Part shown: positions 3,279-61,138 of the stretch, piece after piece
Position numbering within the stretch: the first letter of the stretch is position 1
Layout: the number at the start of each line of letters is the position of its first letter
Source of the DNA: an uncultured Methanosarcinales archaeon
GTDB lineage: Archaea; Nanobdellota; Nanobdellia; Woesearchaeales; ARS49
DNA: 64,000 nt
Assembly (NCBI GenBank): GCA_964354285.1
Contig: CAYGYR010000001.1
Span: 326,424 to 390,423, forward strand
Direction: 5' to 3'
Translations under genes and position numbers: made by a program
The notes under the pieces: model-generated
Seen by the model: the letters and a program-made list of their open reading frames with translations, nothing else
What the model was told of the DNA's origin: nothing
The model's database searches: none

Positions 3279-3887
3279 CTACTTTTGCTTGACTTTTTTT
3301 AGGTTCTCGATCAGTATGTCAAGCGCCCCGTGGACTTCTTCTTCGCTTTTGGTTCCTGTACAAACTATCTTGCCATTCGAGAAAAGAAGGAATGTTGCTT
3401 TCTGGGCAGGAAGTTTGTAGACAAGTCCTGGGAACTGTTCTGGCTCATATTCTGTGTTTTCCAGCTTTATTGCAAGCACGTTGAGGTTAAGATCCATTCC
3501 AACAGAGCCTGCTGCAACAATGTTCTGGATTTTCACTTCTGGGAAGCCCTTGATTTTGACGTTGATTTTTTCAAGTGATTTGATTATTTTTCTGATGCTC
3601 TCGTGCACGTTCGCCATGGTGCGCGCGCCTGTGCACACAATTTTTCCAGAGCTGAAGATTAGTGCAGACGTTTTTGGTTCTTTTATTCTTATGACGAGTC
3701 CTGGGAATTGCTCTGGATTATACTCTGTGTTGCTAAGCGTTGCCGCCATTTTTTCGAGCGGTATGACGTGCCCAAGTGATGCAGAAACAACAATGTTAAC
3801 TACTTTTATCTCTTTCACACCTTTTGCTGGCTTTTCTTTTTCAGCTGGTTTAGCCTGGTGTGTTACTTTCTTTGCCTTTTTAACCAT
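3279..3887 (-). CDS. tbp: TATA-box binding protein (TBP)
   Basis: Two internal direct repeats each carry the EQFPGLV(I/Y) signature (EQFPGLVIRI and EQFPGLVYKL). The track start at 3905 is TTG. The first ATG (MVKKAKK) is at 3887, 26 nt downstream of a TATA box. Confidence 0.9.
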   Translation of the reverse strand: MVKKAKKVTHQAKPAEKEKPAKGVKEIKVVNIVVSASLGHVIPLEKMAATLSNTEYNPEQFPGLVIRIKEPKTSALIFSSGKIVCTGARTMANVHESIRKIIKSLEKINVKIKGFPEVKIQNIVAAGSVGMDLNLNVLAIKLENTEYEPEQFPGLVYKLPAQKATFLLFSNGKIVCTGTKSEEEVHGALDILIENLKKVKQK

Positions 3888-3912
3888 AATCGCACCCCCG
3901 ATCAAACGCTTG

Positions 3913-3972
3913 TTTAAATAGTATTTAAATACTAATACTGAGGTAGTATTTAAATACTTTTGTATTTAAATA
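3913..3972. promoter_or_regulatory. cluster of four palindromic TATA-like boxes (TATTTAAATA) upstream of tbp
   Basis: Copies at 3913-3920 (partial), 3922-3931, 3947-3956 and 3963-3972. The 10-mer is its own reverse complement. The first copy is 26-33 nt upstream of the tbp ATG at 3887, consistent with a leaderless promoter. Confidence 0.5.
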
Positions 3973-4180
3973 TGGATTTTGGAGGTGTAGTACCCCCCTC
4001 GTTTCTTATGGAACTCTGTTGTTTTTGGGTTTTATAAGCCTTGCGGCGCTAAGCCCGTAAATATTGCGGATTTACACCCCCCTGTTTCCCATGGAGATTA
4101 TTATTTTCTATATAAAAAACATAATCTTTAAAAACCAATCACAGTTTCTTTAAGTATAAACTTTGGTGGGTGAGTGCAAA

Positions 4181-4363
4181 ATGATTTTTAGAGGATTTAG
4201 ACCGTATTATGCAAGATCTGGGTTGAACCCCAACAAAAAGGACAGCAAACAGCCAGTGCAAGAACCAGGCTTAATAAGGCGAATGAAAAACTGCGAAGCT
4301 GACGAGCCTGATAAAATAAGAAAGTATGATTCTGGCGAAAGCATAAAGAAATACAATCAGTAA
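4181..4363 (+). CDS. small basic hypothetical protein
   Basis: About 60-aa ORF (MIFRGFRPYYARSG...) with an A/T-rich box (AAGTATAAAC) about 20 nt upstream. No similarity recognised. Could be spurious. Confidence 0.25.
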   Translation: MIFRGFRPYYARSGLNPNKKDSKQPVQEPGLIRRMKNCEADEPDKIRKYDSGESIKKYNQ

Positions 4364-27542: not shown

Positions 27543-28394
27543 ATGCTTGATGATAAAATAACCAAAAAAATAAATGATTTTGTCTATGCCAAACCAAGAA
27601 TAATCATGGAGATTGCGCAGCTAATAAACAAGAATTGGAGAACAGCAGACAGATATGTTGAGAAGATCGCAAAAGAGAACGGCGCAATCGCCACAAGAAC
27701 CTTTCGCGGAGGAACAAGAGGGGCGCTGAAACTGGTATTCTGGAATAATATTGAGAAGATACACAGCACAGAATTCCAGGAAAGAATTTTCAAGAAAATA
27801 GAGTCAGGAAGGGAGAAAGAGGATTTCTCACCGATGGACATCTACCAGTATATTGACTGCAATAAGAAAAAAGCATTCCTTGAGGTGCAGGCAGATGAAA
27901 ACGCAAAGATTGAGCAGGACATTGTCTCGCTAATAAGAGGCGCAAAAGAGCAGATATTCATTTTCTCAGGAAACTTGTCCTGGGCAAATGCTGTGCAAGG
28001 AAAAGTGAAAGTTCTTGATGTTCTTGAAGAGGCTGCAAAGAGAAAAGTAGCAATAAAAATACTTACAAGAGTCGACATTGCAAGCATGAGCAACATAGAA
28101 AAAGTTCTTCCGATTAATGAAAAGCTTGGCAGGGAGGCTGTGGAGGTAAGGCACTGCGAGCAGCCGCTGAGATGCATAATTATTGACAACAAGATAGCGC
28201 GATTAAAGGAGATAAAAGACCCTGCAAATTATAAAAAAGGGGAGCTGGCAAAAAAAACATTCATCTTCTACGAGATCTATGATACTGAATGGCTGGAGTG
28301 GCTCAAAAAAGTCTTCTGGAGCCTTTTCAGGCCAGCAATGCCCGCCAGCAAAAGAATAGAAGAAATAAACACAATAACCGTTTTGAAGCTCTAA
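27543..28394 (+). CDS. putative wHTH transcriptional regulator (hypothetical)
   Basis: N-terminal helix-turn-helix-like segment. C-terminal alpha/beta domain. No firm family assignment. Confidence 0.35.
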   Translation: MLDDKITKKINDFVYAKPRIIMEIAQLINKNWRTADRYVEKIAKENGAIATRTFRGGTRGALKLVFWNNIEKIHSTEFQERIFKKIESGREKEDFSPMDIYQYIDCNKKKAFLEVQADENAKIEQDIVSLIRGAKEQIFIFSGNLSWANAVQGKVKVLDVLEEAAKRKVAIKILTRVDIASMSNIEKVLPINEKLGREAVEVRHCEQPLRCIIIDNKIARLKEIKDPANYKKGELAKKTFIFYEIYDTEWLEWLKKVFWSLFRPAMPASKRIEEINTITVLKL

Positions 28395-29143
28395 AGAGAC
28401 CAGGATTCTCTCTCAAAGACAATAAAAAAGACAATCAAGCAGACAAAACCAATCATTCCTGCATACAGAACCGAACTAATCCACGATAAGCCAAAGGCAT
28501 AAACCATTATAAGATAACTGTAGATTGCGCCTGCAAAAAAGGAATACGCGAGCCTTGAGGCAAAAAACATCCTCGAGCCATCCAGCGGGGGGAAAGGAAG
28601 AGCGCTATATACTGCAAACAAGAAATTAAACAGCACAAACTTGCTCAAGAGTGCAGAACCCACACTGAGGTTAATTGCCTGTATAATTACAGCAAGGGCA
28701 ATATTTACAAGAGGGCCTATCATTGCAACATAACCCCACGTCCTTAAGTTAGGGCCTGGCCTAAACCTGCCAAGGCGGTGAACCTCAAGCGCAGTTATTG
28801 CAACATAGCATCCAGCAAAAATCGTGATCTTGCCGTTTGAGAAAAGAACCAAAATCAATCCAATAAGAACACCAGGCCACCAAATCCTGTGCTCTGGCTT
28901 GAGGCCTGCATACAAAGAGAGCAGCCTCTGCGCAGAATGATGCGCTAAAAGCGAGATGACTGCAATAATGAAAGCAACCAGCAGGTTCTTTATTCCTGCC
29001 GCAGCATCAAATGTCACAGCACCCCATTCATTAAATGAGAATATGAACGCAAAGGCAAGAGCGAGAAGCATCAGTTCATTTAGCTCTTTACCAGAAAACC
29101 AAAAATACCTCTTTATTTTATCCTTGTAGTTCTGCCAACTCAT
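28391..29143 (-). CDS. site-2 protease (M50)-like membrane protein with a non-canonical metal-binding motif
   Basis: Polytopic. ALPFPPLDGSRMF matches the M50 PPLDG motif. The expected HExxH position reads LAHHSAQ. Confidence 0.45.
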   Translation of the reverse strand: MSWQNYKDKIKRYFWFSGKELNELMLLALAFAFIFSFNEWGAVTFDAAAGIKNLLVAFIIAVISLLAHHSAQRLLSLYAGLKPEHRIWWPGVLIGLILVLFSNGKITIFAGCYVAITALEVHRLGRFRPGPNLRTWGYVAMIGPLVNIALAVIIQAINLSVGSALLSKFVLFNFLFAVYSALPFPPLDGSRMFFASRLAYSFFAGAIYSYLIMVYAFGLSWISSVLYAGMIGFVCLIVFFIVFERESWSL

Positions 29144-29186
29144 CAGCAGGTCATTTATAAATCAAGTATATAAATATTATTCTTTT

Positions 29187-29328
29187 ACTTGACTTTTGCG
29201 GTTTGCATATAAAAAAGGCAAAATTGGAAATTTTAAAAAATTTCCAAATTCACAAAACAGAGTTTTGTGAAAAGTCAAGTAAGTTAACTTTTGCCCCTAA
29301 CGCAGATATTAACTGCAAAAGTTAACTT
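29187..29328. repeat. nested palindromes with core ACTTTTGC/GCAAAAGT
   Basis: Outer arms ACTTGACTTTT (29187-29197) and AAAAGTCAAGT (29270-29280). Inner palindromes GGAAATTTTAAAAAATTTCC and CACAAAACAGAGTTTTGTG. A perfect 14-bp hairpin AAGTTAACTTTTGC (29281-29294) / GCAAAAGTTAACTT (29315-29328) overlaps the traB stop. Confidence 0.5.
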
Positions 29329-29995
29329 TTAGTTTTTGCTTAACAAGGCCAACAATGTCTTTTTCATGGCCTGCACCAACAACCGCAACAATCTTTTTTT
29401 CTGGAAAACTCTGCAAAAGATGGGCGAGGCCAGCTGCCATGAAACTATTTCGTTCTGTAACAAGAACCTTGTAAACATTAGGGTAGCGCTTTTTCACTTG
29501 TTTAATCAGCTTCGTGATCGTTTCCTGCTTCGGAACTTTTGCCAGATCAAAATCAATATCAGACTTCCTTAGAATCAAGCCCCTGAAAAGGTCAACAAGA
29601 AAAAACCACTTTTCTTTCCAGCTCAATTCCTTTGAAAATCTCTTCAAGGTAAACTCAATATCCTGGTCGATAAGTGCAACCCGCGCATTGACTTTTTGTG
29701 CTGTCTTGAAGGCAAGAAGCATTTCAGAGCCAGGAGCGACGCCTGTTTTCTGGCCAAGCTTCTGCTCAACCCATGCGCCAATCATAGAGAAAAGAAAGCC
29801 CTTGATACCCACACGCCAAACGTCCTTCCAGCGCAGCTTCCTGCTTATATTGCCTACAAGAGCGGAAAGCCTTTTCCTGTCAAGCTCAAGAGCAACAATG
29901 TCAGGTTTTTCATTTAAAATCGTGCTTTCAACTTCCTTAAGGCTCTGCGGAGCAATATGCGACGTGCCGATTATTATAAGGTTTTTATACCGCAT
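29309..29995 (-). CDS. TraB/GumN family protein
   Basis: LIIIGTSHIAPQS and VVGAGHE motifs, characteristic of the TraB family. Confidence 0.7.
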   Translation of the reverse strand: MRYKNLIIIGTSHIAPQSLKEVESTILNEKPDIVALELDRKRLSALVGNISRKLRWKDVWRVGIKGFLFSMIGAWVEQKLGQKTGVAPGSEMLLAFKTAQKVNARVALIDQDIEFTLKRFSKELSWKEKWFFLVDLFRGLILRKSDIDFDLAKVPKQETITKLIKQVKKRYPNVYKVLVTERNSFMAAGLAHLLQSFPEKKIVAVVGAGHEKDIVGLVKQKLKVNFCS

Positions 29996-30796: not shown

Positions 30797-31693
30797 ATGA
30801 ATATGATTCGTCAAGAAAAGTTTTTAATATTTGCTGAAGGAGAACAAAAAAAGTTTTTGTTAGACGCGAAATCTAAGCTAGGTGTAACATGGAAGACAAT
30901 AATATGTCATTCGCACGTCAGTAAAGCAATGTTCTATAATTATCTAAAAGAAAAGAATATTCTTAATGAGCGCGTTTTTAATTTATTAGCTCAGTACGCC
31001 AATCTTGAAAAATCACAATACTCCTTTAAAACCACACTAAAACAGCAAAATGCTGCAGAAATTCCAACTGGAAACAAAGAAGCTCTTGCCGAGTTTATTG
31101 GCATTCTTCTTGGTGATGGGCATTTAAGTAAGTTTAAATTTCAGATAGTTATTACCCTTAATTCGGCATTAGAATCCGCATATTTACATGATAAAGTCAA
31201 ACCCCTTCTTAGTACCTTATTTAAGCTAGAACCCAAGATAAGGCATTTTAAGGGCAAAAAAGCTGTTCAAATATATTTTGCTTCTAAAAAAGTATTTAAC
31301 TTTTTAAATCAGCAAATGGGAGTGCCCAGTAAAAGGAGAATAAATAATCCTAGCAACAAAATTCCATCTAGTTTTTTTCAAAATAAAAAGTTATTGCGGG
31401 CATGCCTAAGAGGATTATTTGATACTGAGGGGTCTTTAAGTATAAGACATCATAAAGCAATAAGGCTTTCCATTTATAATAATTCAGATTATCTATTAAG
31501 TAGTATCGCTAAGGCATTAACAGACTTGGGTTATACCTCCATTAAGAAACACAAAAGTGTGAGATTAAACAGAACATCAGAAATACTAAAGTTTTTTAAG
31601 GAGATAGGATCAAATAATCCCTATAAGCTAAAAAGATATTTAGCTTGGCAGGCAACAGGCAAATTGCCTAATGTACATACGGCTGTGTTGTAG
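30797..31693 (+). CDS. free-standing double-motif LAGLIDADG homing endonuclease-like protein
   Basis: LAEFIGILLGDGHL (motif 1) and LRGLFDTEGSL (motif 2). The 3' end overlaps the tRNA-Gly 5' end by 15 nt. Confidence 0.7.
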   Translation: MNMIRQEKFLIFAEGEQKKFLLDAKSKLGVTWKTIICHSHVSKAMFYNYLKEKNILNERVFNLLAQYANLEKSQYSFKTTLKQQNAAEIPTGNKEALAEFIGILLGDGHLSKFKFQIVITLNSALESAYLHDKVKPLLSTLFKLEPKIRHFKGKKAVQIYFASKKVFNFLNQQMGVPSKRRINNPSNKIPSSFFQNKKLLRACLRGLFDTEGSLSIRHHKAIRLSIYNNSDYLLSSIAKALTDLGYTSIKKHKSVRLNRTSEILKFFKEIGSNNPYKLKRYLAWQATGKLPNVHTAVL

Positions 31694-41768: not shown

Positions 41769-41984
41769 AACTTTATAAACCGCTTTCTTTTACGCATCTT
41801 TAATATGTCAGAAATATACCACTGGTCTGTATGACCAGTGGACAACATCCACATCTTTTTGCAGAAGGTGGTATATTTCTGAGCATGCTCAAAAGACGGC
41901 AGGGGTGAGCGAAGCGAACATGCCACCAGTCTGTTGACTGGTGGTCCCCTGCCGTTTTTGACACAAGAATGGGGGAGTGCTAAA

Positions 41985-51534: not shown

Positions 51535-51552
51535 CCCGCAAAAGTTTGCGGG
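51535..51552. terminator. perfect palindromic hairpin CCCGCAAAAGTTTGCGGG downstream of rpoD
   Basis: 8-bp stem with a 2-nt loop, immediately 3' of rpoD. Shares the GCAAAAGT core. Confidence 0.45.
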
Positions 51553-51557
51553 CAAAA

Positions 51558-51660
51558 CAGAATCTGCGGATTCTGTGAGTCCACGTTCGCTGATGCTCAC
51601 GTGGGCAGCGCAGAATCTGCGGGTTCTGCTGGTCCGCGTTCGCTCACGCTCACGCGGGGG
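51558..51660. repeat. tandem direct repeat (about 53 nt x 2) of the tRNA-Leu(GAG) leader
   Basis: Unit A (51558-51610) and unit B (51611-51660) are about 80% identical. Each carries the hairpin CAGAATCTGCGG(A/G)TTCTG. Unit B runs into the tRNA 5' end. Unit A ends in a degenerate copy (GTGGGCAGCG). Confidence 0.5.
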
Positions 51661-51758
51661 TGGCAGAGTGGCCAAATGCGCTAGGTTGAGGTCAGCCAAT
51701 GGCTGTGCAAAAGCCTAGTCCCTTAGTGGGTACGCGTGTTCGAATCACGTCCCCCGCA
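51654..51758 (+). tRNA. tRNA-Leu (GAG) with an intron of about 21 nt
   Basis: Acceptor GCGGGGG/CCCCCGC. 3-bp D-stem. Anticodon stem CTAGG/CCTAG with loop TTGAGG.. (GAG). Variable arm TCCCTTAGTGGGTAC. T-arm GCGTG-TTCGAAT-CACGT. Confidence 0.7.
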
Positions 51759-59862: not shown

Positions 59863-60140
59863 GTGGGCAGGCACATGAAGATCGACATAACACCCGCCTG
59901 AAGGTTGACCTTGAACTGTTCTCCATTCCGCGACCCTACAAGCATTGATAACAGCAGTTAGCGTTGCTTCCTTCCGGACCTGGCGCAGTTCCTACAGCAA
60001 CAATCCTGTAGGACAGAATTTCACCGTTGAGCTCAAGACCTTGCAAACAAGCATTAAGCCTTTCCTCATGCATACGCCCAGTCATGAAGCCGATTTACTG
60101 TGACAGGAGACGGCTAACCTCCCAGCATAGCCTGCCCAGG
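59863..60140 (-). ncRNA. ffs: SRP RNA (7S RNA)
   Basis: Minus strand reads CTGCGCCAGGTCCGGAAGGAAGCAACGC (helix-8 consensus GCCAGGCCCGGAAGGGAGCAAC). The 5' GGGCAGGC pairs with the 3' GCCTGCCC. An oligo-T terminator follows. A TTTTTAAA box sits upstream at 60153-60160. Confidence 0.7.
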
Positions 60141-60178
60141 ACAGATTAGGTAATTTGTGTTTAAAAAGGTTTCTATTT

Positions 60179-60270
60179 CTGAACTTTTGCATTTATATTT
60201 TCACTCTTCGAGCAAAAGTTCAGGTCACTAGACTTTTGCCCAGTTTTCTATATACCCCGCAAAAGTCTAG
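60179..60270. repeat. two adjacent perfect 12-bp-stem hairpins with core ACTTTTGC/GCAAAAGT
   Basis: Hairpin 1: CTGAACTTTTGC (60179-60190) / GCAAAAGTTCAG (60212-60223), loop ATTTATATTTTCACTCTTCGA. Hairpin 2: CTAGACTTTTGC (60228-60239) / GCAAAAGTCTAG (60259-60270), loop CCAGTTTTCTATATACCCC. Both loops contain A/T-rich TATA-like boxes. Confidence 0.55.
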
Positions 60271-60322
60271 TATTGTTTGCAGTATAGAAATCCATATTAA
60301 GATGCAAACTATGTAACACAAT

Positions 60323-61138
60323 ATGGAGTCAAAAATCTTGTTTCTCGGAACAGGCAGCGAGATAGCAGTCACAGGAAAACAAACAAGAGCATCAGGAGGA
60401 ATCATTATCAAAACAGAAGACTGCCAATTCCACATAGACCCTGGGCCAGGCGCCTTAGTGAGGGCAGCAATGCACGGCATAAATGTAAGAGAGCACACAG
60501 CAATATTTGTGAGCCACGAGCATACAGCGCACTGCAGCGACGTAAATGCACTTGTTTCTGCCATGACACTAAATGGGTTTGACAAGCACGGAGTTATTAT
60601 TGCAGCAGATTCATTTATGAAAAATAATCACCTGACAGAGTTCCACAAAAATTGCGTAGAAAAAATAATAGTCGCGAATCCAGGCAAAAAAATAGGCGTG
60701 GAAAGCGTAGAGATACACGCCCTGAAAACAAGCCACAATGACCAGAGCTGCATTGGCTTCAAGTTTTTCACACCAAAATTCGTCCTGGCATATACGTCTG
60801 ATACAAAATATGACAAAGACCTTATCGAGCAATACAAGAAATCAGACATACTAATCCTAAATGTTCCCTTCCCATTCAAAACAAAAGACCCCAAGACACT
60901 TAGCAGCGATGATGTTGTGAAAATCATCAACAAAGCCAGGCCAAAACTGGCAATAATAACACACTTCGGAAGCAAGATGCTTGCAACAAACCCGATATAT
61001 GAGGCAAGGGAGATACAGAAACAGACAAAGGTTCAGGTAATTGCAGCAGAAGACGGAATGGTGCTAGAGCCAACATCATACTCTGCTGGCATGAAGCAAA
61101 AGACACTAAATCTTTTTCCTTCTAAACAGAAAAAATAA
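60323..61138 (+). CDS. MBL-fold metallo-hydrolase (RNase Z/PhnP-like)
   Basis: LFLGTGSEIAV N-terminus. VSHEHTAHCSD His cluster. 271 aa. Confidence 0.5.
   Translation: MESKILFLGTGSEIAVTGKQTRASGGIIIKTEDCQFHIDPGPGALVRAAMHGINVREHTAIFVSHEHTAHCSDVNALVSAMTLNGFDKHGVIIAADSFMKNNHLTEFHKNCVEKIIVANPGKKIGVESVEIHALKTSHNDQSCIGFKFFTPKFVLAYTSDTKYDKDLIEQYKKSDILILNVPFPFKTKDPKTLSSDDVVKIINKARPKLAIITHFGSKMLATNPIYEAREIQKQTKVQVIAAEDGMVLEPTSYSAGMKQKTLNLFPSKQKK

Follow-up and report, generated by a model that had tools for sequence, protein, structure and literature searches.

What are the perfect hairpins with a common core that recur at two loci in a 64-kb stretch of archaeal DNA (the window, by which we mean the whole stretch analyzed)? 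An earlier note on this DNA had offered three readings: operator sites for a dimeric regulator, intrinsic terminators, or a miniature inverted-repeat element family. The last of these is supported by target duplications, empty sites, dispersed copies with homologous loops, and a patchy distribution; we estimate a probability of about 0.8 that each hairpin is one of two modules making up a small, non-autonomous transposable element without coding capacity, and that these elements form a MITE-like family. The window itself is archaeal, as indicated by its SRP RNA, RNase P RNA, and tRNAs, and by genes for MCM, TBP, primase, PCNA, and GyrA. The named sequences most closely related to its TrpRS come from Woesearchaeota.

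All three perfect hairpins of the earlier note, here termed H1, H2, and H3 (Table 1), were recovered at their positions, and its view that the common core is improbable by chance held up: ACTTTTGC-N15-25-GCAAAAGT occurs three times in the window, against 0.01 occurrences expected from 100 shuffles. Single-strand folding of these hairpins gave z-scores of -6 to -9. As noted, H1 lies over the end of traB, whose stop codon (29309-29311, minus strand) falls within the H1 loop. The long-range pair described beside it was likewise confirmed (29185-29197 with 29270-29282; 13 bp, 72 nt apart, enclosing two small palindromes), and we read this outer pair as a fourth family hairpin, ACTTGACTTTTGC-N18-GCAAAAGTCAAGT, interrupted by a 46-nt nested insert. 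A further proposed member, CCCGCAAAAGTTTGCGGG (51535-51552) after rpoD, exists and carries the 8-mer, but it forms an 8-bp stem with a 2-nt loop and lacks the other family features; it is unrelated to the family, and we excluded it from the member count. Outside the elements, the 8-mer core is found at chance level in the window (8 occurrences versus 6.5 expected). As for the TATA-like boxes reported in the hairpin loops, TATA-like runs are present in many copies but not in all. The earlier note missed that the unit is a hairpin pair.

Table 1 Features of the two loci in the window (positions are those of the window)
Feature	Position	Strand	Details
Hairpin H1	29281-29328		14-bp stem, 20-nt loop
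Hairpin H2	60179-60223		12-bp stem, 21-nt loop
Hairpin H3	60227-60271		13-bp stem, 19-nt loop
Locus A, membrane-protein gene	28391-29143		Leaderless; H1 upstream
Locus A, TATA box (TTTATATA) of membrane-protein gene	29167-29174	minus	8 nt from target duplication
Locus A, target-site duplication, promoter side	29183-29187		TTTTA on plus strand, TAAAA on gene strand
Locus A, element	29188-29326		139 bp; delta hairpin, 3-nt spacer, alpha hairpin H1
Locus A, delta hairpin arms	29188-29199; 29218-29223 plus 29274-29279
Locus A, nested insert	29224-29269		46 nt; two small palindromes; AAAA flanks at 29220-29223 and 29270-29273
Locus A, alpha hairpin H1 arms	29283-29294; 29315-29326
Locus A, target-site duplication, TraB side	29327-29331		TTTTA, inside last TraB codons
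Locus A, TraB gene	29309-29995	minus	H1 overlaps last codons and stop
Locus B, SRP RNA gene	59865-60137	minus
Locus B, SRP RNA gene TATA box (TTTTTAAA)	60160-60167	minus	6 nt from target duplication; kept in empty sites
Locus B, target-site duplication, left copy	60174-60178		TATTT; single copy in empty alleles (L133, sister species)
Locus B, element	60179-60270		92 bp; H2, 4-nt spacer, H3
Locus B, H2 arms	60179-60190; 60212-60223
Locus B, H3 arms	60228-60239; 60259-60270
Locus B, target-site duplication, right copy	60271-60275		TATTG
Locus B, MBL-fold gene TATA-like box (TATAGAAA)	60283-60290	plus	7 nt from target duplication
Locus B, MBL-fold gene	60323-61138	plus

Each element consists of two adjacent stem-loops separated by a 3-4-nt spacer. 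The 12-bp arms comprise four variable bases followed by the core ACTTTTGC, and the A/T-rich loops span 17-21 nt, or ~40 nt in Pacearchaeota. The outer arms form imperfect terminal inverted repeats (consensus 5'-STNRACTTTTGC; 9-11 of 12 positions match), and each is mirrored in inverted orientation ~20 bp inward, which yields four copies of the 12-bp motif per element. Overall length is 88-109 bp (88-93 bp for Woesearchaeota-type copies, 100 bp for those of CAYWPJ01, and 109 bp for those of Pacearchaeota), reaching 139 and 205 bp in copies with nested inserts. No ORF lies within the elements, and Rfam 15 returned no match to them at gathering thresholds; its sensitive mode gave only chance-level hits (E of ~1 or higher, lowest 0.86). 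Arm bases outside the core co-vary so as to keep each hairpin perfect, one copy carries a compensatory change within the core itself (ACCTTTGC/GCAAAGGT), and G-T pairs are not in excess among stem mismatches. The perfection of the hairpins may be maintained by a requirement of transposition or by templated correction of quasi-palindromes. Arm subfamilies combine variously within elements, as beta+alpha, alpha+gamma, beta+gamma, and alpha+delta.

We examined whether these pairs carry the footprint of insertion by defining the arms as 4 nt plus the 8-mer core and comparing the 5 nt outside the first left arm with those outside the second right arm. Nine of 13 pairs are flanked by a perfect 5-bp duplication and 60 of 65 positions match overall; shifted controls gave 30% matching positions and 0.4% perfect duplications. 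The remaining four pairs match at 3-4 of the 5 bases. Further perfect duplications flank L179 (AAAAC), L197 (GCATC), L140 (TGTAA), and L219 (AGAAC), and the duplication is absent from some pairs (L180, L213) and from several hairpins for which just one module was scored. The duplicated target is T-rich, and on both sides the flanking 5-mer varies by site (TATTG, TAAAA, TTATC, TTTCC, TGGTA, GTTTA, AGAAC, and others). Each hairpin pair is thus one insertion. Tandem hairpin pairs whose stems are unrelated to ACTTTTGC fill further intergenic gaps (L160, 3135-3219 and 5166-5252; L196, 3-86; L219, 7834-7938); two of these had 5-bp flanking repeats, no more than chance would give over the 16 offsets tried.

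Empty sites provide a second line of evidence for insertion. At locus B, between the SRP RNA and MBL-fold genes, a strain contig encoding an identical MBL protein (L133) lacks exactly the 92-bp element plus one copy of the repeat, with breakpoints bounded by TATT. Two other contigs (L131, L132) match the window sequence here, and a third (L134) differs by three SNPs, all within H3. In the sister species (L282-L284; TrpRS ~80% identical), the TATA boxes of the SRP and MBL genes stand ~18 nt apart without hairpins between them, and the 'cagtatagaaatccatatta' run at the MBL-fold gene promoter is conserved. Since locus B is empty both in L133 and in the sister species, the insertion is derived and has yet to reach fixation in the population. 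In another species (L285, 7644-7700; L286, 205-260), exactly this SRP/MBL promoter gap holds an unrelated insertion of 42-51 nt built from two small hairpins; a 9-10-bp direct repeat (GATTACTAT) flanks it, and the insertion includes, in part, that flank in inverted orientation.

Locus A can be compared with a wider set of relatives, as a metagenome scan with a TraB alignment recovered 28 loci whose TraB is 47-100% identical (100% corresponding to the window's own species). In the TraB orthologues of the closest other species (L255-L257; 68-69% identical), the junction reads '..ctaaaag|aataatatttatatactt..', which is the window sequence minus 144 nt, that is, the element and one repeat copy; locus A is empty in these and in about 20 other TraB loci. 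It follows from this junction that TraB ancestrally ended ..K(L/I)(K/R)E*, directly abutting the TATA box of the next gene. Insertion changed the TraB C-terminus from ..KLKE* to ..KLKVNFCS*, replacing the last codon; ..VNFCS* is encoded by the element, and the present stop codon comes from the H1 loop. A Woesearchaeote with a TraB 61% identical (L218) carries a pair of its own at the same gene junction, flanked by a different duplication, and this is best read as an independent insertion.

Locus A is also polymorphic among strains. Nine contigs with identical TraB lack the 95 nt between two direct GCAAAAGT repeats, which are arms, leaving a chimeric single hairpin composed of the left arm and loop of H1 and the right arm of the neighboring hairpin; L123 carries the long form. 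This deletion allele shows that recombination between arms occurs. A free-standing LAGLIDADG homing-endonuclease gene (30797-31693), just upstream of tRNA-Gly, is present in the window and L123 and absent from the strain contigs L121 and L122. The 46-nt nested insert of locus A splits one arm of the delta hairpin, and we found no second copy of it in the sequence examined. Family hairpins here and elsewhere are interrupted, within the T/A run of one arm's core, by inserts of two to three short palindromes; these measure 46 nt in the window and ~100 nt in Pacearchaeota (L219, ~2075-2175; L231, ~4120-4220), where the same nested-insert derivative was found at two loci.

To follow the family beyond this species, we scanned species-representative genomes with one 9-mer variant, AACTTTTGC-N18-22-GCAAAAGTT, which matched at least 119 loci. 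Among the matches listed, loci cluster in a few archaeal MAGs (CAZGZA01, CAYWPJ01, CAYHXI01, and CAYPAC01) and also fall in several MAGs from Woesearchaeota and Pacearchaeota and in one from Nanoarchaeota. CAZGZA01 holds at least 8 loci, 7 of them with full pairs; Pacearchaeota MAGs hold at least 2-3 each, and the window two elements. Archaeal copies are nearly always tandem pairs 3-4 nt apart, and even copies at unrelated loci have homologous loops. The window and other MAGs have in common the arm subfamilies GTTAAC, CTGAAC, CTARAC, and CTTGAC; in the Pacearchaeota version, the arms of the second hairpin are of the CTGAAC type and its loop measures ~40 nt. The 28 archaeal sites examined all lie between genes or, at most, clip the end of one, and their contexts are divergent (9/28), tandem, and convergent. 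That Woesearchaeota and Pacearchaeota have a common core would also fit a host-factor binding site.

The distribution is patchy. No family member was found in ~92 kb of sister-species loci or in 27 loci of TraB relatives (~130 kb), ~220 kb in total. A search for orthologues of the genes flanking copies in other MAGs yielded no usable empty sites. In viral contigs, stricter twin-hairpin and beta-hairpin patterns found nothing, and a 16-base pattern gave only single chance matches among the matches listed. Several features by which MITEs are recognized are present: short (under ~500 bp), non-coding elements with terminal inverted repeats, a duplication of fixed length, multiple copies, and filled and empty sites.

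Several other hairpin families surfaced in the scan. Bacterial families with the same 9-mer were seen in CALCDS01 (L142-L223), L151, and JADGCS01 (L144/L154/L175/L210). The pattern AGAACTTTTGC-N19-22-GCAAAAGTTCT recurs at no fewer than 14 loci of a Clostridiaceae MAG, as well as in Caloramator, and AACTTTTGCCAAG-N10-CTTGGCAAAAGTT at 4 loci of a Deltaproteobacteria MAG among the matches listed. These unrelated-looking bacterial families were retrieved because of the search pattern. The four archaeal MAGs in which copies cluster (L149-L232) are titled 'uncultured Methanosarcinales archaeon'; they and the Woesearchaeal window have in common arm subfamilies, an ncRNA candidate that is 87% identical, and a G+C content of about 40%, and the Methanosarcinales label of those MAGs may be wrong.

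That ncRNA candidate is one of several structured elements in the window that lie outside the family. It spans ~160 nt (window 41803-41963; L228 5821-5980), with two long hairpins connected by GAGCATGCTC, and is 87% identical between the window and CAZGZA01 within unrelated flanks and with compensatory changes. A TATA-like box lies ~20 nt upstream, a T5 run stands at its end, and Rfam gave no match; we take it as a candidate structured ncRNA that may be H/ACA-like. The GAGCATGCTC center motif also occurs between two other hairpins in L163 (~2980) and L211 (~7600). Between the rpoD stop and an intron-bearing tRNA, which the sensitive Rfam mode alone detects and ARAGORN misses, lie two tandem copies of a small hairpin pair (51553-51660 and 51654-51758) with compensatory differences (CCACG/CGTGG versus CCGCG/CGCGG). 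Directly upstream of the TBP gene (3279-3887, minus strand), nested TATTTAAATA palindromes (3904-3979) amount to several overlapping TATA-like boxes that could be a site of TBP autoregulation.

We also examined where the insertions land. RNA and protein genes of the window have TATA boxes 22-29 nt upstream of their starts, and a TATA-like hexamer begins 6-13 nt from the element edge at 12 of 30 flanks, against 7.5% of non-coding control positions (binomial P < 1e-5). Elements sit preferentially 5-8 bp upstream of the TATA box, where the distal edge of the BRE lies. At both window loci these TATA boxes are present in the empty sites and are therefore part of the target rather than of the element. 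To reach that distance from the TATA box, the locus A element entered coding sequence, which hints at targeting. Promoter-proximal DNA appears to be either targeted or the sole landing site tolerated in these compact genomes; promoter proximity could reflect survivorship rather than targeting.

Proximity to promoters is also what lends some appeal to a regulatory explanation, in which a dimeric or tetrameric transcription factor would bind ACTTTTGC half-sites conserved in cis and control the adjacent promoters. At many promoters the foot of the hairpin pair lies ~10-11 nt from the TATA box, even distant DPANN lineages have the 8-mer core in common, and the arms seem to resemble a BRE-like A-rich sequence. 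The operator sites that the earlier note had proposed for a dimeric regulator are nevertheless unlikely because the sites are missing from the same promoters in the sister strain and sister species, because half-site spacing varies from 17 to 40 nt (17-23 nt in some copies and ~40 nt in others), and because non-core arm bases co-vary toward perfect palindromes, which protein half-sites do not need. The sites are also flanked by 5-bp duplications and occur in mixed gene contexts, including between convergent genes, and solitary half-sites are not enriched; we regard this explanation as highly improbable. Less probable still is a function at the RNA level, whereby the hairpins would serve as terminators, as 3'-end stabilizing structures of the upstream gene, or as bidirectional insulators. 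Several copies do begin 0-40 nt past a stop codon, the stems are stable, and each arm holds a T4 run that would lie in the direction of incoming transcription. Yet the SRP RNA and MBL-fold genes are both transcribed away from H2 and H3, which excludes ordinary terminators at locus B, and eight other sites also fall between divergent genes, where there is nothing to terminate. Loops of 17-40 nt are atypical for terminators, the stems are A/T-rich, stem mismatches show no preference for G-T, and archaeal termination does not need hairpins. The elements are moreover dispensable in sister strains, and intrinsic termination, the other function that had been suggested for them, is not supported as their primary nature.

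Mobile DNA of a different type could also produce hairpins of this form. Elements transposed as single strands, whether REP/BIME-like (mobilized by a RAYT-type Y1 transposase) or palindrome-associated and derived from IS200/IS605, would account for intergenic pairs of palindromic units totaling ~100 bp and for perfect hairpins, which would form on single strands; the architecture resembles E. coli BIMEs and REPINs. Such an origin is very unlikely because a variable 5-bp target is duplicated here, and in addition no GTAG-like foot motif is conserved and a scan of window proteins turned up no Y1 transposase. Other candidates were set aside. In tRNA and Rfam scans covering 19-25 loci, ncRNA genes lay near the elements only occasionally. 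A replication origin or ORB role was rejected, there being no Orc1/Cdc6 gene nearby, scattered copies, and a skew that only mirrors gene orientation. Integron attC sites, invertible promoters, and cruciform switches were dismissed given the perfect palindromes, the intervening segments of ~20 bp, and the target duplications.

Set among known systems, the element is of an ordinary, MITE-like kind and its build is unusual. Prokaryotic MITEs include the Correia/NEMIS elements of Neisseria and the SM1-SM4 MITEs of Sulfolobus, and like them the twin-hairpin elements are short, non-coding, multi-copy, intergenic, and promoter-near, with terminal inverted repeats, target duplications, and strain polymorphism. 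The Correia element folds as one long hairpin and duplicates TA, whereas here each end is itself a perfect hairpin, since the terminal repeat is copied in inverted form ~20 bp inside, and the duplication is 5 bp. The best-conserved part of the arm is moreover the inner 8-mer rather than the outermost bases. This differs from known MITEs and, being unusual for DDE-type inverted repeats, counts against the MITE reading. E. coli REP/BIME and Pseudomonas REPIN sequences are likewise extragenic, ~100-bp, many-copy arrangements of two palindromic modules of different subtype. REP/REPIN stems are imperfect and G+C-rich with short loops, a RAYT gene is associated with them, and insertion leaves no target duplication; the stems here are instead perfect and A/T-rich, with loops of ~20 nt and a 5-bp duplication. 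IS200/IS605 elements insert 3' of a fixed tetranucleotide without target duplication, and the IS200/IS605-derived PATEs of haloarchaea similarly insert 3' of a specific short motif that is not duplicated. Like the present elements, PATEs are small non-autonomous elements of archaea that have hairpins close to both ends; the flanking 5-mers here, by contrast, vary by site and are duplicated. We found no description of the twin-hairpin family in the literature, only a general census of prokaryotic MITEs, in which archaeal MITEs go down to 41 bp in length and one Woesearchaeal genome, carrying 105 MITEs per Mb, ranks with the most MITE-dense in the archaea (PMC11602168).

How might such an element move? 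The 5-bp duplication points to staggered cleavage of the target by an enzyme encoded elsewhere, and the window encodes no transposase genes. A search of ~250 kb of archaeal loci and the window for an autonomous partner, as longer elements with the same arms and a 5-bp duplication or as repeated ORFs, found none, and we know of no parent IS of the twin-hairpin family; with no such partner found, we infer mobilization in trans only from the duplications. A transposase encoded elsewhere would bind the 12-bp motif and make cuts in the target staggered by 5 bp. A more specific possibility, which we consider doubtful, is that an undescribed transposase reads the fold-back end and integrates specifically at the upstream edge of archaeal promoters occupied by TBP and TFB. 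What would be read as the fold-back end could be the four copies of the BRE-like 12-mer or the hairpins themselves. The different insertion in the SRP/MBL promoter gap of L285 and L286, together with the two-hairpin inserts within family arms, would indicate insertion guided by structure or promoter instead of the usual sequence-guided transposition of MITEs.

DPANN archaea, whose genomes are tiny and tightly packed, are generally regarded as poor in mobile elements. The present family documents active transposition, polymorphic between strains, in a Woesearchaeote; its insertions land only a few bases away from core promoters, and one of them altered a protein C-terminus. It offers concrete markers for tracking strains in metagenomes, and its perfect palindromes are a likely source of chimeric alleles and of breaks in assemblies. 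Finding the transposase would either extend the set of archaeal IS families or reveal a known one in a new role, and if integration is truly promoter-aimed, the family would serve as a natural tool for studying how promoters are built in uncultured archaea.
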